A DNA stretch of 64,000 nt. Origin: an uncultured delta proteobacterium (lineage in GTDB: Bacteria > Desulfobacterota > Zymogenia > Zymogenales > Zymogenaceae). The position numbers were made by a program, and so were the translations under genes. This document shows positions 4,111 through 63,314 of the stretch, one piece after another. The notes under the pieces were generated by a model. It was not told where the DNA came from. It was given only the letters and a program-made list of their open reading frames with translations, and did not search any database. Within the stretch, counting starts at the first letter, position 1, and each line of letters begins with the position of its first letter. The DNA lies in NCBI GenBank assembly GCA_963735595.1, contig CAVTLK010000001.1:96001-160000 (forward strand), in the 5' to 3' direction.

Positions 4111-4440
4111 TTACTGGATGGTGATATATATACGGTTTGGCAGGCAGATGATGGAGTCTCCCTTCTCCGAGATCTTTCCCATGTCGATGCACACCTTGTT
4201 GGCGCAGGGGGAATCGGCCATGTAGACCTCGCCGTGTTCGATGACGACCGTCGAAATCCCCAGGGGGCCCTGGACCGGGATCGTCCTGTCTTCAGAGAGC
4301 GGGTAGCTTCCTACGACCTCGTTTCCCTCTTCGATTACGACCGTTCTTCCGTGGCCGTTGGAGACTATTTCAAACGCGAGGAACGCCCCGGCAATCAGGA
4401 GGGCCGCCAGAAGGATAAAGACGATGTCGCTTTTTTTCAT
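4111..4440 (-). CDS. NusG domain II-containing membrane-anchored protein
   Basis: N-terminal TM helix; SPCANKVCIDMGKI...IICLPNRI signature. Confidence 0.9.
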   Translation of the reverse strand: MKKSDIVFILLAALLIAGAFLAFEIVSNGHGRTVVIEEGNEVVGSYPLSEDRTIPVQGPLGISTVVIEHGEVYMADSPCANKVCIDMGKISEKGDSIICLPNRIYITIQ

Positions 4441-4599: not shown

Positions 4600-4993
4600 T
4601 CAGTTTCTCTGGGTATGGCAGCCCAGGCACTCGACCGGCGGGGTCAGCCCCTCTGCGGTCTTGTTGATGTGGCAGATGACACAGTTCTTGTGCATCGCGT
4701 CCTTGAAGGTGATCTCGGCGTCGGCCTTGTGGCACGCGTCGCAGCGGGCCGACGGCGTACCGGAGACGAAGTCCGCCTTTTCGGTATGGTGGCATGTCAC
4801 GCAGGTAATCCCGAGGTCCTTGTTGTGGTACTCGTGCTTGAAGGTTGATCCCCAGGTACCGGTCGGTGGCCTTGGTCGTGTCGTCGATGGTGACGGTATT
4901 GGGGCCATAATCGACGGAAAAGGCCGCCACGCCCATGAAGAAGAGGAACAGGACACAGGCGGCAGCGATTGATATCAGGTTCTTCTTTTTCAT
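4600..4993 (-). CDS. Tetraheme class III cytochrome c3 family protein (one indel)
   Basis: Sec signal peptide (ORF 4472..4993) joined to FKHEYH...CVTCHH...CDACH...MHKNCVICH...CLGCH (ORF 4600..4956). Confidence 0.9.
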
Positions 4994-5012
4994 ATATTTC
5001 CTCCGCTTTTAT

Positions 5013-6645
5013 TCAATACCTTCTCTGTCGAGGATGAGCCGCGCGGCCCTCCATCCGTTGATCTGGGCCGGAACCGACCCCGAACCATGCCTGGGTCCAG
5101 TTGCTGGCGACAAAGATGTTGTCGATGGGGGTATCATTGGGGATCTTCTGCCACTGGTCGACGTTCGTATAGAACCCGTAGATGACACCGCCCTCGTTCA
5201 TGGTAAACTCCTTGAGGGTACCGGGGTGATGATCTCCTTGACCTCGACGTTCCTGGGGTCGGCGAGCTCGGGGATGACATTTGCGGCAAGCGAGATGAGC
5301 TCGTTTGCCTTTTCTTCCTTCATCTTCAGGTATTCGGCCTGATCCTTGGGCCAGATGTTGATGTCGGAATAAGAGTGAAGCACGACGACCGATTTGCCCG
5401 GAGGGGCGTAAATCGGATCGTCGTAGTTCGAGTAGACGGTGATCGGTCGTGGCGCCGTTGGCGAAATCGCCCTTCATCATCGTGTCGTAGAGCACGGCCG
5501 AGTCCTTCGTGGTGCTGTAGAAGGCCTCGGTGAGATCGTAGCCCCTGGCCTTGAGGTCGATGTTGAGGCCCATGTAGACGCCGAACAACGAGTTTGCCGG
5601 CTTCAATTCCTTGAGCTTGGCCACGTAATCGGCCGGGCAGGTTCTCTTCGCCGATCAGCTTGAAGACCATCTGGTAGGGGTCGGTGTTGCAGACGACGTA
5701 GCGGCTGGAGTAGGTGTTGCCGAGGGCCGTCTCGACGCCGGTGGCCATGCCGTCTTCGATGATTGATCTTGGTGACCAGTTCGCCGACCTTGACCACACC
5801 GCCCAGCTCCGTCTATACGCTCGGCGTAGGCGTTGGAGAGGGCCTGTGATGTACCCTTGACGTGCCAGGGACCGTCGGTGAGATAGCGCGTCGGTCGCGG
5901 CCGGCGAAGATGAGCGAGGTCTGTTCCGTGATGGGGGCACCGTAGTAAACCCAGAGCTGGGAGACGACGGCCTTGATGTCCTCATTGGTGAAACACTCGT
6001 CCATGAGGTCCTGGGTCGTCTTATCCTTCCACTCCATAGAAGGTCTTCTGCTTGAAGGGGACCTGGGCCTTGGTAAGGAATGCCTTGAATCCCGTCTCGC
6101 GGAAGAGGTTCTTGAGCGAGAGCAAATCGTTCATCATGCCCGAGCAGATGACGTGGAACTTATCGATTCCCGCCGATTCCTCGGGCCACTTTTCCTTCAG
6201 CGTGGCGTCCCATTCTTCCCAGTTGTTGGGCATGGTGACGTCCAGACCTCCGGGGTAGACCGAACGATACAAATCGGGGACCGATAGAGCTCGACTTTTT
6301 CGCCCGACGCCGCATCACCTCCAGGAGCTTATAGAGCCCCCGGTCGGCCCTGCCGGGGCCGCCGCCTGCCATCTCGTGCAGGGCCGTCTCAAAGGTAAAG
6401 TCGCCCCGTGTGAAGTTGGTGGTACATCCGCCGACCTTGTGGTGCTGTTCGAGCAGCAACACTTTGAGGCCCTTGCTGGCCAGGTGCGCGCCGGCTGAAA
6501 GTCCTCCCATCCCGCCTCCGATGATGATGACGTCATAATCGGCCTCATTGGTAGGGCGCTTTTTGCTGGCGCATCCCCCCGTTACGAGGAAGGTCACGGC
6601 GAGAAAGAGGATAAAGACTGTTAATAGTGTCGATTTCTTTCTCAT
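5013..6645 (-). CDS. Lipoprotein FAD-dependent oxidoreductase, phytoene desaturase/CrtISO/retinol saturase family, paralog 1 (several indels)
   Basis: Lipobox VTGG-C; YDVIIIGGGMGGLSAG...LLEQHHKVGGC..F.RG.F.FE dinucleotide-binding fold; fragments are collinear with paralogs 2 and 3; ends in DREGIE. Confidence 0.85.
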
Positions 6646-6857
6646 CTAAAGACCTCCATAAAAGATAAACACATGCCGTTCATGATCAATGGAGATCATT
6701 GCGGGCAAAAAGCCGTTAACTGGCTGGCAGGTACAGTACCGATATCCATCGTTAGTGTTACTTTGCTCATCAGGTCCTTATTGCCGATTCGGGACCGCTG
6801 AACTAAAGACATTCCCGCCGTGCATTATACACCCGGTATTCGAAAAAGCCACGTTTA

Positions 6858-7284
6858 CTATTGCCGTTGCCGGTGACACCGAGGCACTGGGTCGGCGGAC
6901 TTTCTTCGTAATCTTCCTGAATTTCCCCGTCTTCACCGACGGCGGCTTCCCTGGCCTTCTTGATGTGGCATAACACGCAGCGCCGATGCATGGCGTCCTT
7001 GAAGCTGATCTCGGCGTCGGCCTTGTGGCACGCCTCGCATCGGGCCGGCGTCCCGGAAACGAAGTCCTTGTTCTCCGTGTGGTGACACATGACGCAGGTC
7101 AGGCCCACCTCGTCGACGTGCTTGGAGTGACTGAAGCCCACGCCGAGATAGCGGTTTGTTGCCTTGGTAGTGTCGTCAATGGTAATCGGTCCCGGGCCGT
7201 AATCGACGAAAACGCCGCGGCGCCGGCAAACATAAGAAAAAGGATGAAGACGACAATACCGGGAATGATCGTCTGTTTCTTCAT
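6858..7284 (-). CDS. Tetraheme class III cytochrome c3 family protein, paralog 2 (indels)
   Basis: Signal peptide MKKQTIIPGIVVFILFLMFAGAAAFS; HSKH...CVMCHH...CEACH...MHRRCVLCH; fourth CLGCH motif restored by one base near 6880. Confidence 0.85.
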
Positions 7285-7300
7285 ATCCTCTCCTTTGCAT

Positions 7301-8921
7301 CTATTCAATGCCCTCACGATCCATGATGAGCCGGGCGGCCATCCATCCGTTGATCTGGGCGGAACCCACGCCGTGCCACGACTGGGTCCAGCTTGACGTG
7401 ATGAAGAGATTCTCGATCGGGGTGTTTATCGGTATCTTCTTCCACTGATCCAGATCGATATAGAAGCCGTACGGGATCCCGTGGTAGTTCATGGTGAACT
7501 CCTGCAGGGTAACCGGCGTCATGACTTCCATGACATCGACGTTTTTCGGATCGGCAAGCTCCGGGATGACGTTGGCGGCAAGCTCGATGATCTCCCGGGC
7601 CTTTTCGTCCTTCATCTTCTGGTACTCGTCCCGGTCCTTGGGCCAGGAATCGTAGTCGGAGAACTCCAGCAGGCCGACGAGCGATTTGCCCGGCGGGGCG
7701 TAGATCGGGTCGCCGTAGTTGGAGTAGATCGTGATCGATACCATGCCTTCCTTGAAGTTGTTCTTCATCATGTTGTCGTAGACGGCCACGGAGTCCTTGC
7801 TCGTGTTGTAGAATATCTCGGTATCGGTATAGCCGAGCTTCTTGAGGTCGATGTTGAGCCCGAGATAGGTTACGAACAGCGAATTGGCGGGCTTGAGCTC
7901 CTTGAGCTTTTCGACGTAGCTCGTGGGGAAGTTCTCCTCGCCGACCAGCTTGAAGACCATCTGGTACGGGTCGGTGTTGCAGATGACGTACCGGGAGGTA
8001 TAGGTATCGCCGTACTCGGTCTGTACTCCGGTGGCAATCCCGTCTTCGACGATGACCTTGGTCACCAGCGTCCCGGTCTTGACCTCACCGCCCAGTTCCC
8101 GGATACGCTCGGCATAGGCGTTGGACAGTTCCTGGGAAGTGCCCTTTCACGTGCCAGGCGCCCTCGGTCAGGAAGACCTCGTTGGCCGCGAGGGTCAAGG
8201 AGTGCGATCTCGTCGGGGATCGGGGCGCCGTAGTAGACCCAGAACTGGGAGACGACGGCCTTGATGTCTTCTCCGGTGAAGCAGTAGTCCAGCAGCTCCT
8301 GGAGCGTTCGTCTTGCTCCACTTGACCAGCTCGGGATGCTTGATGGGCACTGACAGCGACTCAAATATCTTCTTTGCGCCGCTATAGCGGAAGAGGTCCT
8401 TCACGCCCATGATATCGGCGAAGACCTCGGTTGACAGGCTGTGAAGCTTATCAACGCCCTCGGATTCCTCCGGCCATTTGGACTTGAGGGTGTTGTCCCA
8501 CCCCTCCCAGTTTGCGGGCATGGTCACGTCGATGGTCGTTTCGCCGGGCAAGATCGAGCGGTACAGGTCGGGGAGCTGATAAAGCTCAACCTTGTCCTTT
8601 ACACCGCACAGATCCATAAGCTGGAAGAGACCGCCCCCGGCCAGTTCGTGCAGCGCCACCTCGAAGGTATAATCCCCCCTTGTGAAGTTAGATGCGCAGC
8701 CGCCGACTTTGTGGTGCTGCTCCAGGAGTAAGACCTTAAGACCCTTGCTGGCAAGGTGCGCCCCGGACGAGAGGCCCGCCATGCCGCCGCCGACGATGAT
8801 GACGTCGTACTGCGGTGCGGCGACCGGTTTTTCCGGACGGCCCGCACGAGTTTGCGGTAAACAGAAATACGGCGAGCATAAGGATAATAGCTGTCTTGAT
8901 ACGTAAACCGGATATATTCAT
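7301..8921 (-). CDS. Lipoprotein phytoene desaturase/retinol saturase family oxidoreductase, paralog 2 (indels)
   Basis: MNISGLRIKTAIILMLAVFLFTANS-C lipobox; GGGMAGLSSGAHLASKG; C-terminus SWTQSWHGVGSAQINGWMAARLIMDREGIE. Confidence 0.85.
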
Positions 8922-9044
8922 ACTCCACCTCACCATGGATGAACGATACACTAATCACGCGAAAAAACGGAAGGTTATTCAATATTCAGCTATAGTTTCC
9001 ACCGGGCATACACACCGGCCGGACTTCTATGCTCGCATACTCGG

Positions 9045-10677
9045 CTACTCGATGCCTTCCCGGTCGAGGATCAGACGTGCGGCGCGCCACCCGTTGACCT
9101 GCCCCGCGCCGACACCGTGAAATCCCTGAGTCCAGTTACTGGCGATAAAGACATTGTCGATGGGGGTGTTGTTGGGAATCTTCTCCCACTGGTCAAGGCT
9201 CATGTAGAAGCCGTACGGGCTGCCCTGATAGTTTTTCGTGAACTCTTCCAGGTAACCGGAGTAATGATCTCCATGACCTCGACGTTCTTCGGATCGGCGA
9301 TCTCCGGGATAACCTCGGCGGCCAGCGCGACGAGGTCGGCCGCCTTTTCCTTCTTCATTGCGCGATATTCGTCCGGGTCCTTCGGCCACAGGTTGGTATC
9401 GCTGTAGATCAGGATATTCAGCGAGCGATTTGCCCGGCGGTGCATAGATCGGGTCGCCGTAGTTGCTGTAGATGCCGATGAGGCATGCGCTGTCCCTGAT
9501 ATCTCCCTGTCATCCACTTGTCGTAGACCTCGTTGGAGCTGTAGGACTTGTTGTAGATGATGTCGGTGTCGGTGTAGCCGAGCTTCTTCAGGTCGATGTT
9601 AAGGCCGAGATAGACTCCGAACAGCGAGTTGGCCGGTTTCATCCCCTTGATCTTTTGCGACGTAGCTGCCGGGCAGGTTTTCCTCTCCGATGAGCTTAAA
9701 GACCATCTGGAATGGATCGGTGTTGCAGACGACGTAGCGGGCCGTGTAGACATCGCCGTATTCGGTCTCTACGCCGGTGGCAATTCCGTCTTCGATGATG
9801 ATCTTGGTGACCAGCGTCCCGATCTTTACCTCGCCGCCGAGCTCCTCGATGCGCTCGGCATAGGCGTTAGACGAGCGCCTGGGACGTCCCCATGACGTGG
9901 CACACGCCTCCAGAGAGAAACATGTCGGTGGCGGCAAAATTCATAAGTGACGTCTGGTCATCGGCCGGACCGCTATAGTACATCCAGAGCTGGGACATGA
10001 CGGCCTTGAGCTGCGGATCGGTGAAGCACTCGTCCATCGTATCCTGGAGGGTTTTGTCTTTCCACTCCATGAGGGTCTTCTGTCTGAAGGGGATCTGGAC
10101 CTTCGTTATGAGCGCCGTGAGGCCGGACTGCCTGAACAGGTTCTTGATCGACATGATATCGGCCGTTACCTGGCGGCAGAGGTGCTCGAATTTGTCGATG
10201 CCCGCCGACTCCTCCGGCCACCGCTCCTTGAAGGCCGCGGTGTAGGCCTCCCACGACTCGGCCGGGACGGTGAAATCGACGTCGGGATAGATCGAACGAT
10301 ACAGGTCGGGCAGTTCATAGGCTGTTATCTTTTCGTCAACGCCGCAGGCCTTCATGAGCTGGTAGACGGCCCCGTTTTTCTCCTTAACGGCTCCCGGCAT
10401 GACGTGCAACGCGACCTCAAAGGTAAAGTCGCCCCGCGTGAAATTGGTGGTGCATCCGCCCGACCTTGTGGTGCTGTTCCAGGAGCAGGACCTTGAGGCC
10501 TTTGCTGGCCAGGTGAGCCCCGGCAGACAGCCCGCCCATGCCTCCGCCGATAATTATCACGTCGTATTGGGCATCGGATGCGGGACGTTCACGCCCGCCG
10601 CATCCCGCCGACGAGAAGAGAAGGACCAGCAGCGATACAACAGTAAGAGTATACAAAAGGTAGTAGTTTCTTCTCAT
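9045..10677 (-). CDS. Lipoprotein phytoene desaturase/retinol saturase family oxidoreductase, paralog 3 (indels)
   Basis: MRRNYYLLYTLTVVSLLVLLFSSAG-C lipobox; YDVIIIGGGMGGLSAG; C-terminus NWTQGFHGVGAGQVNGWRAARLILDREGIE. Confidence 0.85.
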
Positions 10678-10704
10678 CGTAAACCTCCCGTTAATAGCGG
10701 TGCT

Positions 10705-11397
10705 TCATCCTTTCTTTGGAAGTTTATCCATCATCTCCTTTACCCTGGATTGGAAGAGCCTTCGGAGGATGTAACCCCGAAGCTCATCGGCCTGCTCGGA
10801 GAGGGTAACGGTGATCCTTATATTCTCGTTCTTGGTTTTGCCGGCAACGATCTTCTTGCGCAGCCTAAGCTCCTCCTCGACGATCTTTTCGCCATGCTCG
10901 ATATAGAAGGTCATATCCCGGATGTCGATCCCCAGCTCCTTACTGCCCCTCATGAGCGTCTTGGCAAACAGCACGTCCTCCTGGTTATAGGGCTTGGTGC
11001 CGCCCTGATTATAGGGGACCAGGATTTTGAGCTTTTCGGCGGTATCCAGGAGCGACTTCTCGATACCGGTTGCCGCCAGAAACTCCTGGCGCGACATGAG
11101 GCGTTGCTCCCCCTCGGTTCGGGGGCGGAAGATAGCGTCTTCAAGTGAGAGGAGGGAGGGGAGGGATATTCCGTTATCCATCCGGCTGATTATGTTCTTG
11201 ATGACCGACAGGGGATAGTATCGTTTTTCCTGAAGCTCTCTGACCAGCGCGATCCGCTCGACGCACGATTCGTCGTAGTAGGCCATTGACTTGTTGACCT
11301 TTGTCGGCTGGGGAAGAAGCCCCTCCTTAACGTAGTATCGTATGGTCGATTGGGGTACGCCGGTGATACGTTCCAGTTCGCTTATTTTGACGGGCAT
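10705..11397 (-). CDS. MerR-family transcriptional regulator
   Basis: N-terminal KISELERITGVPQSTIRYYVKEGLLPQP winged HTH. Confidence 0.9.
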   Translation of the reverse strand: MPVKISELERITGVPQSTIRYYVKEGLLPQPTKVNKSMAYYDESCVERIALVRELQEKRYYPLSVIKNIISRMDNGISLPSLLSLEDAIFRPRTEGEQRLMSRQEFLAATGIEKSLLDTAEKLKILVPYNQGGTKPYNQEDVLFAKTLMRGSKELGIDIRDMTFYIEHGEKIVEEELRLRKKIVAGKTKNENIRITVTLSEQADELRGYILRRLFQSRVKEMMDKLPKKG

Positions 11398-11430: not shown

Positions 11431-11459
11431 AAGATAGCGGAAAAGCCCTTAGGTGTCAA
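11431..11459 (-). promoter_or_regulatory. Putative sigma-70 promoter for the MerR/oxidoreductase cluster
   Basis: Minus strand TTGACA-17 nt-TATCTT upstream of the merR-like ATG. Confidence 0.55.
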
Positions 11460-11739: not shown

Positions 11740-12282
11740 ATGAAAGAACAATCGATCGTCGTCAGGCCGACGTTATCGTATCGGCTCAAGAAGATGGTGG
11801 TCGGGATCGCGCTCCTTGCCCTCGGAGGCACCTTCGAGAAGGTCTCGAAACACAGCGCCGAGCTTAAGGAGGAAATCAAGACTTGGAAGAAGGGAATCGT
11901 TATCTCTCTGGGAGTGCTCCCCAACGGGCCGTCCATCTCGCTCAAGGAGGAAAACGGAACGATCCGCTACCTCGGAAGGGGATATAAGAACCCCGATGTG
12001 AAGATCATATTCAAGAACATGGACAGCGCTTTTTTACCGTTTACCGCCCAGATGGGGTCTCATATCGCCTTTGTCCAGCACCGGGCGATGGTGCATGGCA
12101 GCGTCCTGGACGGGATCAAGGCAAACCGGGCCATGGGAATCGTCCAGGCGTATCTCTTACCCGGTATCGTCTTCAAAAAGGTTTTCAAGCTGCCGCCAAA
12201 GCTGACGCTCAAGCAGAAGCTCTTTAAGCTCTATGTCTACCTCACGATGGGCATCGACATGGCGCTCAACGCGGCCAAGTGA
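11740..12282 (+). CDS. Hypothetical protein, possibly SCP2 sterol/lipid-binding-like fold
   Basis: Clean ORF; PDVKIIFKN..AF..F.....H.AFVQHRAMVHG pattern resembles SCP2-like proteins (by eye). Confidence 0.55.
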   Translation: MKEQSIVVRPTLSYRLKKMVVGIALLALGGTFEKVSKHSAELKEEIKTWKKGIVISLGVLPNGPSISLKEENGTIRYLGRGYKNPDVKIIFKNMDSAFLPFTAQMGSHIAFVQHRAMVHGSVLDGIKANRAMGIVQAYLLPGIVFKKVFKLPPKLTLKQKLFKLYVYLTMGIDMALNAAK

Positions 12283-12348
12283 CCGTGTTCGAATGGAGCC
12301 AATTAAACGATTCTTTTTAATATAATATCCAGATAGGAGATACAAGCG

Positions 12349-13523
12349 ATGTTACCAGACTATTATGAATTTATCTGCCCGGTCAAGATATTAAGCGGCC
12401 TCAAGGCCCTCTCAAACCTTCCCTACGAGCTGACGCTGCTCGGTGCAAAGCGCCCGCTCATCGTCACGGACCAGGGTGTCGTGAAGGCCGGGCTCCTCAA
12501 GCTCGTTACGGAGGCCTTTTCGGAATCCAAGATCAAGCCGGGGGCGATCTTCGACGAAACCCCGCCCGATTCGGGCAGCGCCGTCGTCAACAAGGCTGCC
12601 AAACTCTTCAAGGATAAGAAATGCGATTCGTTTGTAGCCGTCGGCGGCGGGAGCGTCATCGATACGGCCAAGTGCGCCAATATGATCGTGGTGGAAGGCA
12701 CCAGCGACCTGATGAAGTTCCAGGGGGTAGACCGCCTCGAAAAGGATATGAAACCCTTCGTGGTCATCCCGACGACGGCGGGCACCGGGTCGGAGGTCAC
12801 GAGCGCCGCGGTTATCTATGACGAGAATACCCACACGAAAATGGCCTTTACCTCGAGCAAGCTCTTCCCCAAGGCGGCCATACTCGACCCGCGTATGACG
12901 ATGACCATGCCGCCCAAGATCTCCGCGGCCACCGGTATGGACGCCCTCACGCACGCGGCCGAGGCCTACTACTGCCTGGCAAAGAACCCGGTGTCGGACG
13001 CGTTTGCGATCGCCGCGATCAGGCTCATCTTTGGCAACCTGCTCACCACGGTTAAGGAACCGAAAAACAAGGAGGCACGGCTGGCGATGCTCAACGCCTC
13101 GTTGCTTGCCGGCGCAGCGTTTTCCAACTCGCTGGTGGGCGTCGTGCACGGTATCGCCCATGCAACGGGCGGGGTTGCCCGGGTGCCCCACGGGGTGGCC
13201 AATTCTATCCTGCTCCCCTACGGGATGGAGAACAACTTCAAGCGGGTCGGAGCCGATCATCGGCGAGCTCGCTCCCTTCATGGGGATGCCCGTCGACGGG
13301 AAACGCCAAGAAGGACGCCGAGAACGCGGTGGCGGCCGTCAGGAAGCTGGGTAAGCAGCTCAAGGACGCCAGCGGCCTGCCGACGAAGCTCTCGGAGGCC
13401 GGCGTAACCAAGGAGCAGCTTCCCGAGATCGCCAGGTCCGCCATCAACGACGGCTCCTGCACGATCAACCCGGAGGAGATCACCTACGAGGTGGCGCTGG
13501 ATATCCTCAAGAAGGCGTTTTAG
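12349..13523 (+). CDS. Iron-containing alcohol dehydrogenase (one indel near 13250)
   Basis: GGGSVID, PTTAGTGSE, GMDALTHAAE, VHGIAH and PHGVAN motifs; C-terminus in ORF 13329..13523. Confidence 0.92.
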
Positions 13524-13578
13524 CAGCTCAAAGAAAGCTCCGATTTCCATATTCTTCGGTAGGTATAAAAGAAAGCAA

Positions 13579-13602
13579 GCGGGCGCCTGAAAAGGCGCCC
13601 GT
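13579..13602. terminator. Hairpin between convergent genes
   Basis: CGGGCGCCT-GAAA-AGGCGCCCG. Confidence 0.65.
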
Positions 13603-13646
13603 TAGTTTGTGGGAGATTTGTTGGATCCGCGGGTTAATACTCCCGC

Positions 13647-14805
13647 TTACCTCAGCACCTTGGATATCAGCCCGAACCGGCGGTCGGCCGTCTCGGCGCT
13701 GTGGATCTTGAACATTAACGAGCGGATCGGCCGGATGTAGCGGTAGTACGAAGCGACTTTAGCGTATATGGGGTGGGTCTTGATCTCGGCCTCCAGACGG
13801 TTCATGTCCCGGTTCTTCCACGACATTCCCGTCTTGACGTCCCGGGCGAGGATCTGTCCCACGTGGTGCCCGATGAGAAACGACGAGGCGATACCGCTGC
13901 CCCCCTTTGCCTCGACCTGGCCCGCGGAGTCCCCCACCATGACAACGCCGGGGGCGGCCACGAACCGGTCGATGAAGCCGCCCATCGGGATGATCGTGAA
14001 GAGGCGGTAGGTCTCTTTGGTGCCCTTCATCCGGTCGCGAAATACCGGGTGTTTTGCGATAAAACGCTGGAGGAATCCGTCGACCGAGGCGGCGTCGGGA
14101 ATAGGGATACCCCGGGGGGTATTGGGTTTGAAGATAAGAAGCCCGATGTCCGCCCTGCCGTTACCGGACGGGAAGATGTAGCCCACCGACGGCGGGTCGC
14201 CCTCGTGGATATGGGTGAAGTACTCGAGGCGGATGTCGGGATATCGACATGTTTTCCACGCGCAGCTTCAGGATCGGGCAGTCGATCTTTCCCCGTCCGA
14301 TCCCGAGTTCGCGTGAGGTAATCCCCTCGGTTCCATCCGCCCCCACGACGACCCGGGCCCTTATCTCGCGCACGTTTCCCTTGTTCCGTACGCGGACGCC
14401 CGCGACGCGGCCATCCTCCACGATCAGGTCCATCACCTCGGAAGAAAACATGATATCGAGCCCGTTCGCCTTTGCGACGGCGGTCATGTCGTGCATGAAG
14501 GGGGTCCACTCAAAGATGAGGTTCGGATCATCGATGACGCGGTCGATCCACCTCGTGTCGGTCGGGGAATAGTAGCGGCGGCGGTTGGTAACGGCGACGG
14601 TGTTTCGGTCGAAAAATCCCTTGCCGAGGATCGTTTCCATCTCCGGGTTGAAGTGGATCGTTTCCCCTTTAATGGTGTCACCCACGTTCTTCTGGCGCTC
14701 GACCACGAGCACCTGCGCGCCCCGGGCAAGCGCCCCCATGCCGGCGCCGAGTCCGGCGGGGCCGGCCCCGATCACCAGGACATCGACGTGATTTTGCTGG
14801 GTCAT
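13647..14805 (-). CDS. Geranylgeranyl reductase-like FAD-dependent oxidoreductase (one indel)
   Basis: DVLVIGAGPAG, VVVGADG, GYIFP and VGDSAGQVEAKGGSGI motifs across two frames. Confidence 0.85.
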
Positions 14806-14988
14806 ACCATCGGCCTCATTTCTATAATTTGATACAAAAATGAGTATCTCACAGCGGCGGTAAAATAGCGCTAAAAAAGTTGCGCCGGCATAGAAAAAAG
14901 TGATAACAGGATACACACGGGGCGATTCGAATTATAGGACGTAAGACGAGGGTATCGGAGATTGAGGTCAACCAGGAGGGATGCCTGT

Positions 14989-61526: not shown

Positions 61527-63314
61527 ATGACGACGATGGTAACTGTCACTATTAATGACCGGGAAATCAAAGTGAAGGCGGGGATAACGATCCTGGAGGC
61601 CGCCCGTGAGGCTGGAATTTATATCCCTACACTTTGTGATCACCCCGCGGTCCTTCCGACCGGGGCCTGTCGAATGTGCGTGGTAGAGGTGCTCGGGCAA
61701 CGTAACCTGCAGAGCTCGTGCACGTTTCCGGTAACCGACGGGATGAAGATCGATACGGAATCGAAGCGGGTGAACGGCGCCCGAAAACTGATCATTGAAA
61801 TGATCTTTTCGGAAAGAAATCATTACTGCCCCTATTGCGAGATGAGCGGCAGCTGCGAGCTTCAGGACATGGGCTACCGGTACCGCCTCGATCACTGGGC
61901 GTTTCCCACGTTCACGAAGGCCTATCCGCTGGATGCTACGCACAAGCATTACCTGATGGACCATAACCGGTGTATTCTGTGCGGAAGATGCATTCGTGCC
62001 TGCAACGACCTTGTCGCCAATCACACGCTGGGATTAGGACAGCGTGGAAGTAGGACCCTCGTCGCAGCCGACGGAAATGCCCCGCTCGGAGAATCATCCT
62101 GCATCTCCTGCGGAACATGTGCCCAGGTGTGCCCGACGGGAGCTCTTTTTTACAAACGGAGCGCCTATATGGGGCGGGACGCCCTGACCGAAAACGTCAA
62201 GAGCACCTGCAACCGTTGCAGCGTCGGCTGCGGCACCCGGGTCGTAACGCGCGGCGGGAACGTCCTGCGTGTGATGGGCGATTGGGACGCCCCGGTAAAT
62301 AAAGGTCTATTATGCACGATGGGCCGTTTCGATCTCCTCTACGATACGCGTCAGAGGGTAACCGCGCCCCTCTTGCGGTCTGAAGGAAGGCTCGAAGAGA
62401 TAAGCTGGGAAAAGGCAATCGAAATCGTGGCCGGCCGAATCGGCGCCGTAAAGGCCTCGGATATAGGGGTACTTGCGGGCAGCCACTCGTCCAATGAGGC
62501 GCTGTACCTCCTTAAGAAGCTTTTCAAACAGGAGCTGAAGGTTTCCAATATCGGTACGATAACTACTCCAACGCCCCGGATATTCAGCAAGCCGCACGGT
62601 AGTCTCGGCGATATACTCAAGAGTGATATCATTCTGGTCGCCGGCTCCGATCCGGGCAACAACCAGCCGGTAGCTTCATTTATCATCAAGCGCGTCGTGG
62701 ACAAGGGGGCACGGTTGATCGTGGTTGACGACAATGAAAACGGTTTGTCTCCGTTCGCCTTCATGACTGTCGGTATGGCCGACATAGGAAAGGCGATCGA
62801 AATCGCCGGGCGGGCCGACAATCCCGTTATCGTGTACGGGTCCGGTGTATCCGAGGCGGCCGCGGTCGAACTAAAGAAACTGGAAGATAGGGTAGAATTC
62901 ATCAGGATCGAGTCGGGGGTCAACACAACGGCCGTAGCGGCTCTGGGACTGGACAACGGCTATGACCCGGCAACGGCTAAGCTCCTGTTTGTCCTGTTGG
63001 GTGAAGAAGATTGCCGGGAAAACGATCTGCTTAGGGCTGTTCCAAAGGATACATTTGTCGTTGTGCAGGCAAGCTATGCGTCTCCGATCACCCAGCGGGC
63101 TGCGCTCGTGTTGCCCGGCACGATATGGTCGGAACAGAGTTGTACCCTCACGAATTTCGAAGGAAGGGTTCAGAAGGTCGCTCAGGCGGTGGAGCCCGTC
63201 GGGCAGAGCAAGCCCGACTGGGAGGCGCTGCAGCTATTATCGACAGCACTCGGCAGGAAGATCGCGGTATCCGTAGATACAGTCACGACAGAAGTGGTTG
63301 AGTCACTGAAATAA
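61527..63314 (+). CDS. hoxU: Long HoxU/NuoG-like Fe-S subunit with molybdopterin-oxidoreductase-like C-terminal fold
   Basis: [2Fe-2S] IPTLC...CRMC...C; HYCPYC..C; CILCGRCIRAC; CISCGTCAQVCP; CNRCSVGC...LC; adjacent to hoxY/hoxH. Confidence 0.75.
   Translation: MTTMVTVTINDREIKVKAGITILEAAREAGIYIPTLCDHPAVLPTGACRMCVVEVLGQRNLQSSCTFPVTDGMKIDTESKRVNGARKLIIEMIFSERNHYCPYCEMSGSCELQDMGYRYRLDHWAFPTFTKAYPLDATHKHYLMDHNRCILCGRCIRACNDLVANHTLGLGQRGSRTLVAADGNAPLGESSCISCGTCAQVCPTGALFYKRSAYMGRDALTENVKSTCNRCSVGCGTRVVTRGGNVLRVMGDWDAPVNKGLLCTMGRFDLLYDTRQRVTAPLLRSEGRLEEISWEKAIEIVAGRIGAVKASDIGVLAGSHSSNEALYLLKKLFKQELKVSNIGTITTPTPRIFSKPHGSLGDILKSDIILVAGSDPGNNQPVASFIIKRVVDKGARLIVVDDNENGLSPFAFMTVGMADIGKAIEIAGRADNPVIVYGSGVSEAAAVELKKLEDRVEFIRIESGVNTTAVAALGLDNGYDPATAKLLFVLLGEEDCRENDLLRAVPKDTFVVVQASYASPITQRAALVLPGTIWSEQSCTLTNFEGRVQKVAQAVEPVGQSKPDWEALQLLSTALGRKIAVSVDTVTTEVVESLK

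Follow-up and report, generated by a model that had tools for sequence, protein, structure and literature searches.

In this work, we describe a cluster of redox genes in a stretch of 64,000 nucleotides, hereafter the window, from the genome of a member of the Zymogenaceae (assembly GCA_963735595.1, contig CAVTLK010000001.1). Three putative lipoprotein flavoenzymes of the CrtI fold (FP1, FP2 and FP3) are encoded there next to two tetraheme cytochromes c3, and together they represent a real, conserved and apparently undescribed system, an exported flavoenzyme-cytochrome pair built on that fold. We put at about 0.5 the probability that this is a periplasmic two-component reductase, in which a carrier of flavin mononucleotide (FMN) and four hemes feeds a flavoprotein that saturates C=C bonds of fat-soluble compounds. 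This reading is based on gene order, heuristic export signals, fold, invariant histidines, linkage, fusion and a sequence motif, from which we infer the later steps. The cytochrome is very probably the electron partner of the flavoprotein, a partnership well supported by genomics. With this system, a fold of carotenoid enzymes would be put to use in periplasmic electron transport, and a flavinylated cytochrome c3 is predicted; if the proposed function is true, we would be dealing with a type of anaerobic terminal reductase not recognised so far.

Six-frame translation of the window shows all genes on the minus strand, in the order merR, FP3, FP2, c3, FP1, c3 that the first-pass annotation had reported. 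The two cytochrome genes lie 16 nt after the FP2 stop and 15 nt after the FP1 stop, respectively. The features of the cluster are:

10705-11397, minus strand: merR, a MerR-family regulator of 230 residues, frame intact (PF13411, E 4.6e-19)
9045-10677, minus strand: FP3, CrtI-fold flavoprotein, lipobox SAG-C at 10611-10600; 7 frameshifts in the assembly
7301-8921, minus strand: FP2, CrtI-fold flavoprotein, lipobox ANS-C at 8855-8844; 4 frameshifts
6858-7284, minus strand: upstream c3 (after FP2), tetraheme class III cytochrome c3 with a Sec-type leader (PF02085, E 2.7e-10); 2 frameshifts
7157-7177, minus strand: DDTTKAT of the upstream c3, a flavinylation-like motif preceding the first heme
5009-6645, minus strand: FP1, CrtI-fold flavoprotein, lipobox TGG-C at 6582-6571; 12 frameshifts
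4600-4993, minus strand: downstream c3 (after FP1), tetraheme class III cytochrome c3 with a Sec-type leader (PF02085, E 6.5e-10); 1 frameshift
4865-4885, minus strand: DDTTKAT of the downstream c3, a flavinylation-like motif

All five redox genes are frameshifted in the window assembly: compared with a second genome (G003), with which the region is colinear at a DNA identity of 89%, they carry 26 single-base indels, while merR and the gene for a NusG-domain-II protein downstream carry none. In the same comparison, no in-frame stops made by substitution were found among the frameshifted genes, and synonymous changes exceed non-synonymous ones by 118:30 in FP1 and 91:27 in FP2. In a genome of the same genus (G001) the five redox genes are all intact, and the cluster is thus whole; there the FP3 orthologue is 542 residues long. 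FP1 orthologues are intact in both G001 and G003, and the FP2 orthologue P0001 is intact and 95% identical across the C-terminal 254 residues. Neighbouring genes and the formate dehydrogenase genes of the window assembly are split as well, and these comparisons indicate that the frameshifts are likely assembly errors. The initial claim of four CxxCH motifs in each cytochrome holds as it stands for the downstream c3, which has all four in one frame, but not for the upstream one as assembled, where three share a frame and a one-base indel near 6879 interrupts the fourth; its orthologues in G001 and G003 have four.

Linkage was counted on stop-to-stop segments after 90% dereplication, for near-full-length genes with 600 bases downstream (99 out of 160 rows). 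A partner c3 was found for 44 out of 70 clade members, as the next gene in 30 cases, fused in 8 and within the cluster in 6, in keeping with the linkage that the first-pass annotation had anticipated among homologues. None of 29 more distant homologues has a c3 as the next gene; a tetraheme is present at the N-terminus of one of them, and another two are only neighbours of a cluster of the clade. The linked loci are labelled Zymogenaceae, Thermodesulfobacteriota, Myxococcota, Planctomycetota and Pseudomonadota. Fusion points the same way: a C-terminal tetraheme is present on 15 of the 120 listed hits to a fusion protein, and, among the best 150 representatives, fused hemes were found in 11 out of 33 proteins with an export signal and in none of the 117 without one. 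A FastTree phylogeny of 92 sequences places the c3-linked members on the deep branches of the clade (support 0.995) and the c3-less ones nested among them; N-terminal tetraheme fusions group apart, in an exported clade of their own. In five family genomes, 13 out of 18 PF02085 matches follow a flavoprotein gene; the remaining five, one per genome, lie in the resB-ccsA operon where examined. Across the phylum sample, these loci alone match the partner profile strongly (E <= 1e-26). AlphaFold2, applied to a 672-residue fusion, gave a pLDDT below 50 over linker and c3, and a pTM of 0.63.

The second exported clade (L072:6302-8656, L075; P0255, P0260, P0262, P0268, P0275, P0324, P0342, P0360, P0368) is tethered through an N-terminal lipoprotein segment and has the same motif, along with a tetraheme domain of a type lacking the class III histidine pattern. 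N- and C-terminal heme domains align with a probability of 96.9, motif included, and were therefore no longer regarded as unrelated. One protein, P0267, has the motif and no heme.

Signal types were assigned by a heuristic combining hydrophobicity and lipobox. The three lipoboxes given by the first-pass annotation were all located ahead of the fold that binds flavin adenine dinucleotide (FAD), each in a leader that is basic, then hydrophobic, about 12 residues before the FAD-binding GxGxxG. An export signal was assigned to 220 of the 227 homologues having an N-terminus (9 out of 236 lack it), 159 of them of lipoprotein type, so that the export of homologues was also borne out. A Tat-like flag was raised on only one of the 236, itself ending in a lipobox; the others are of Sec or lipoprotein type. 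What the first-pass annotation had named as fatal to its proposal, namely absence of lipoprotein (SPII) signals, absence of c3 co-occurrence among homologues, or cytoplasmic NAD(P)H-dependent enzymes, was not encountered, the SPII signals being heuristic assignments. Tat-exported members of the same branch are P0237, P0256, P0258, P0282 and P0291, and loci L060 and L061 (10 out of 150 representatives); archaeal homologues of about 690 residues with an N-terminal membrane domain were seen at L064, L069, L070 and L071.

The assignment to the CrtI/RetSat-like group (COG1233) was confirmed for the N-terminal FAD motif and the overall CrtI/CrtD fold. The best sequence match in the PDB is CrtI (4DGK, E 2.7e-12), and the P0001 model (pLDDT 89) best fits CrtD (4REP, TM 0.78, E 4.8e-31). 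All curated carotenoid-enzyme cut-offs of NCBIfam are missed by a wide margin, P0001 scoring 120 against 238 for crtI_fam, 125 against 550 for CrtD and 107 against 587 for carot_isom; the carotenoid isomerase model is the top NCBIfam match of another member, P0093. The flavocytochrome c model gives P0093 32 of 542 bits, under the TIGR01813-type cut-off, and the PF00890 match spans only the N-terminal ~40 residues, with no full catalytic domain. Phytoene synthase (PF00494) was not found in any of five genomes, 89-99% complete. No model or structure match points to RetSat, which is suggested only by automatic names; source names disagree among retinol 13,14-reductase, prolycopene isomerase and phytoene dehydrogenase-like, ESM Atlas offers names at family level only, and 'retinol reductase' or 'prolycopene isomerase' are unsafe names for these proteins.

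Out of 401 genomes sampled from the phylum, 13 contain close members (E < 1e-200), namely that of the window, 8 of the 9 others in the family and 4 from beyond it. The five paralogues of G001 share 57-64% identity and differ in stretches predicted from homology to line the active site. Large expansions of the family are found in G022 and G034, with 23 and 33 flavoprotein matches in a single genome, respectively. A fourth flavoprotein-c3 pair of the same family lies unbroken elsewhere in the window's genome (G000:C4:597079-599110, L036).

Both window cytochromes score above the PF02085 cut-off. Eight histidines, those of the four CxxCH motifs and four distal ones, are invariant in all 16 alignment rows, the signature of four predicted bis-His hemes. 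Bis-His class III hemes are of low potential, and a low potential would be expected here from the same ligation. The partner alignment features, in addition, an invariant N-terminal stretch, D-x-x-T-x-A-T-x-R-Y. The consensus for flavinylation by ApbE is D-x-x-[ST]-G-A-[ST] (PMC12052999). With the Gly left free, the motif lies ahead of the first heme in 39 out of 41 linked cytochromes, the misses having Glu for Asp or Pro for Ala; among the 39, the Gly position is Lys in 22, as in the window's cytochromes, and Gly in 7. Six of 41 rows scored as unlinked have the motif, all of them N-terminal fusions or partners of edge-cut flavoprotein genes, and it is found in none of 35 other cytochrome rows, including five c3s of ccs operons and one edge fragment. 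It also occurs in 14 out of 15 C-terminal fusions, in 6 out of 10 N-terminal fusions and in one of 341 heme-less homologues. All 23 genomes with a heme partner contain apbE. In one ApbE substrate, a Gly-to-Ala change kept about half of the flavinylation (PMC12052999). On this sequence evidence, the c3 motif is probably flavinylated. The motif, along with the NusG-II gene, was not part of the first-pass annotation.

The direction of the reaction is suggested by relatives of different architecture. Out of 30 long relatives, 6 are fused to FNR-type FAD/NAD domains, two of them with a 2Fe-2S match, while a seventh is joined to a pyridine-nucleotide reductase that has a BFD (2Fe-2S) domain. Modules of these kinds normally feed electrons from NAD(P)H, one at a time, into a catalytic centre, and by analogy the tetraheme looks like a periplasmic stand-in for NAD(P)H input modules. 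Such fusions in cytoplasmic relatives favour reduction, and we lean, from sequence comparison, towards a reductive reaction. Typical c3 hemes lie below 0 to +100 mV. CrtI desaturation works best with acceptors of 0 to +100 mV (PMC3382138). As to the substrate, fold, membrane anchoring and the thioesterase domains fused to 4 out of 30 long relatives all suggest a lipophilic compound, whose C=C bond is the rather likely target. The cytoplasmic relatives with NAD(P)H-input fusions include P0245, P0259, P0263, P0301, P0314, P0339 and P0257; in ESM Atlas, a 615-member cluster has this build, most commonly in Actinomycetota.

Candidate donors are available. All five family genomes contain a Tat-type NiFe hydrogenase and a formate dehydrogenase, each with a cytochrome b, as well as 14-19 acyl-CoA dehydrogenase matches per genome; a MenA-like prenyltransferase is present in family genomes. 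The hydrogenase and formate dehydrogenase are at odds with a purely fermentative description of Zymogenia, whose genomes have been described as being without respiratory genes (bioRxiv 2021.03.22.436540), and the flavoenzymes are candidates for the acceptor side of these exported enzymes. At the hydrogenase and formate dehydrogenase loci (G000:C1:676000-685200, that is L250, and L245-L249), the formate dehydrogenase has an in-frame TGA, likely selenocysteine. A conserved protein of ~470 residues with a C-terminal tetraheme domain of c554 type (L084:8730-10139; L247:27-1433; L249:14983-16260) has its gene next to one resembling aldehyde oxidoreductases and, in two of the genomes, also next to the formate dehydrogenase genes; its N-terminus seems cut at a stop. 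It was considered as the sulfur reductase MccSep and rejected, having four hemes where MccSep has five.

In the proposed mechanism, flavoprotein and c3 would be exported via Sec, and the hemes of the latter attached by the ResB/CcsA system of the genome, while ApbE is predicted to add a covalent FMN to the last Thr of DxxTKAT. Electrons would then move singly from FMN and hemes to the enzyme's FAD, which in its reduced form would saturate a C=C bond of some lipophilic compound, such as an unsaturated fatty acyl, isoprenoid or polyene chain, with a different substrate for each flavoprotein paralogue. The cell would thereby gain a way of disposing of electrons, either from acyl-CoA oxidation or from H2 and formate. 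That the system supports growth by respiration is conceivable, though doubtful. More speculative still, and on balance unlikely, is the view that respiratory terminal reductases comprise, in addition to the fumarate-reductase and molybdopterin families, a third one of which these proteins are the first members, defined by the CrtI fold and by a one-FMN/four-heme carrier, and allowing Zymogenia and other anaerobes to pass electrons to unsaturated lipids or terpenoids with no methanogen as partner; an earlier survey of respiratory reductases covered PF00890 and PF00384 (bioRxiv 2022.12.26.521950). If lipid or terpenoid C=C bonds are indeed reduced, anaerobic biohydrogenation would have concrete candidate enzymes in these proteins, some of them single-chain fusions ready to be expressed.

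In its way of working, the system most likely resembles Mrd/Mcc, the methacrylate reductase system of Geobacter sulfurreducens AM-1, and the flavocytochrome c3 of Shewanella (Fcc3, or FccA), on a different fold and without belonging to their family. What these have in common with the system as proposed is a periplasmic flavoprotein, a tetraheme c donor and C=C reduction, and they come as an operon pair or a single chain (PMC4427408). They differ in being of the fumarate-reductase family PF00890 and acting on small enoates, Mrd being Tat-exported, whereas the window system features a CrtI/CrtD fold, Sec/lipoprotein export and a class III cytochrome with a flavinylation-like motif.

A second parallel is offered by the cytochrome c-dependent flavoprotein amine oxidoreductases, that is Pnao, its relatives, and NicA2 with its monoheme cytochrome CycN, NicA2 being itself among the fold matches (TM 0.55). 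These proteins share the superfamily PF01593, are exported and have an adjacent or fused cytochrome c, and some exported NicA2-type members are, as here, without a partner; NicA2/CycN differ in having a Tat signal, in oxidising amines and in passing electrons toward the cytochrome (PMC12224317). The main text of that paper contains no 'phytoene', 'cytochrome c3', 'multiheme' or 'lipoprotein'. The claim that the architecture was undescribed apparently stands for this pairing, but not for its general plan, already known from NicA2/CycN (PMC12224317) and Mrd/Mcc (PMC4427408).

From the CrtI/CrtD/CrtISO/RetSat family (COG1233), which supplies the top sequence match (CrtI) and the top fold match (CrtD), the window enzymes are set apart by their periplasmic location, the heme partner, the lack of a detectable phytoene synthase and scores far under the cut-offs; the proposed catalytic residues R148/D149/R152 (PMC3382138) are not retained as a set in the alignment. 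CtmAB and the steroid delta-24 desaturase are related anaerobic flavoenzymes acting on lipophilic allylic substrates, one of which uses one-electron flavin chemistry, but they are heteromeric and carry a covalent histidyl flavin at the consensus G-F-x-x-[NS]-[TL]-H-A (PMC11061730); our clade reads F-x-F-[ED]-x-A-L-H-E, with the His two places further on. PMC11061730 has no mention of periplasmic location or cytochrome c. Listeria FrdA and Shewanella UrdA, which are extracytosolic reductases flavinylated by ApbE, resemble the system as proposed for the window, in that electrons enter an exported FAD enzyme through covalent FMN (PMC8238504). In systems of their type, an FMN domain mostly takes the place of a cytochrome or the reverse (PMC8238504), whereas the window c3 combines the motif and four hemes in one domain of ~100 residues; a precedent for FMN and heme in one chain is provided by some multi-flavinylated RnfG proteins with multiheme domains (PMC8238504). 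No protein like this c3 appears in the text consulted of the flavinylation surveys PMC8238504 and PMC10979944, a flavinylated cytochrome c3 was not found in print, and neither was a description of the flavoenzyme-c3 pairing, in a literature scope that left out supplements and most subscription journals.

Various observations weigh against the proposed reductase. The pairing recurs, but the partner is not obligate: 26 of the 70 clade members have no partner c3 nearby, and three genomes that are 99-100% complete (G242, G296 and G320) contain the exported enzyme and no c3 match. Moreover, related Zymogenaceae are abundant in the sample, so that the counts overstate independence. The c3s of Zymogenaceae have Lys at the consensus Gly, where their RnfG keeps the canonical form, and the motif may serve as a docking strand only. 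As for apbE, it is common, being present in 8 out of 14 control genomes, and was not found in G242 or G296, both without a partner c3. Scans for NapC/NirT (no credible match in nine genomes), NrfD (in one of five) and futalosine genes (none in nine) revealed no quinol-to-cytochrome link, and hydrogenase and formate dehydrogenase may instead make H2 and formate, as in syntrophs. In 44 neighbourhoods inspected by eye no conserved substrate-pathway gene was seen, and the context outside the family varies.

The same evidence may be read in other ways. The enzymes could act in the periplasm as oxidising catalysts on a lipophilic or amine compound, by desaturation or allylic hydroxylation, and pass electrons to c3 as NicA2 does to CycN. 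This has precedent within the superfamily, where all cytochrome-linked amine oxidoreductases, with adjacent and fused cytochromes c, oxidise their substrates (PMC12224317), as do the anaerobic relatives CtmAB and delta-24 desaturase (PMC11061730); the top structural match is a desaturase, and heme-copper oxidases are present in 7 of the 13 distant hosts. We nevertheless consider oxidation unlikely, since low-potential bis-His tetrahemes would poorly accept electrons from C-C desaturation, the covalent-His consensus of CtmAB is not matched in register, and the Zymogenia genome study reports no respiratory acceptor genes (bioRxiv 2021.03.22.436540). A redox-neutral cis-trans isomerase or a similar enzyme, requiring reduced FAD and using c3 only to prime or re-reduce the flavin where NAD(P)H is absent, is less probable still. 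CrtI and CrtISO do isomerise with reduced FAD under anoxic conditions (PMC3382138), the isomerase model tops the list for P0093, and the many c3-less members stand alone in variable contexts; a one-to-one, repeatedly fused four-heme partner, however, suits electron turnover better than priming, the c3-less members are nested within the c3-linked clade, and two c3-less genomes, G242 and G296, have another, STC-like tetraheme with an NrfD module.

Reduction might also be real and yet serve envelope upkeep or detoxification, saturating lipids of the cell itself or toxic ones from the environment without yielding energy. A lipid anchor setting the enzyme at the membrane, control by a MerR-family regulator and a stand-alone cassette in variable contexts, with no quinol dehydrogenase link found, would fit this explanation, to which we assign a small probability: up to five paralogues per genome recall the reductase arsenals of respiring anaerobes (bioRxiv 2022.12.26.521950). 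Finally, it is very improbable that we are dealing with decaying pseudogenes or ordinary carotenoid-biosynthesis genes. The frameshifts and the CrtI-family profile matches could suggest so, but the absence of new in-frame stops, the synonymous excess and the splitting of other genes of the assembly speak against decay, and the missing phytoene synthase and the low scores with carotenoid models against carotenoid synthesis.

Two further features flank the cluster:

4111-4440, minus strand: NusG-domain-II protein, membrane-anchored, frame intact (PF07009, E 1.7e-28)
11431-11459, minus strand: sigma-70-like promoter match upstream of merR, TTGACA-17-TATCTT, a consensus match only (10/12)

The NusG-II gene adjoins the 3' end of the last c3 gene, a placement also seen in G001, G006 and G008, belonging to three genera. 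It is a paralogue of the gene which, elsewhere in these genomes, sits between apbE and the PF07456 FAD-exporter gene eetB, in a cluster apbE-nusGII-PF07456. PF07456 (EetB) is a FAD exporter in Listeria (PMC9973259); by analogy, export of this type would also provide FAD for Sec-exported enzymes. The MerR-family regulator likely controls the cluster, merR being found beside flavoprotein genes also in G001, G004, G006 and G008. Eight promoter-consensus sites were found, against a shuffle mean of 3.8. The same cluster is contained in locus L038, whose FP2 is 85% identical to P0001, and 13 DNA runs contain only 0.05-0.09 of the words of the region.

Beyond the cluster, positions 11740-14916 of the window contain a divergent gene of 180 residues and an iron alcohol dehydrogenase gene, followed by a frameshifted minus-strand geranylgeranyl-reductase-like gene; these are kept within the genus and only in part in other genera. 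A molybdopterin oxidoreductase match lies at 62355-63242 on the plus strand, and the large subunit of a NiFe hydrogenase is encoded just beyond the window end.

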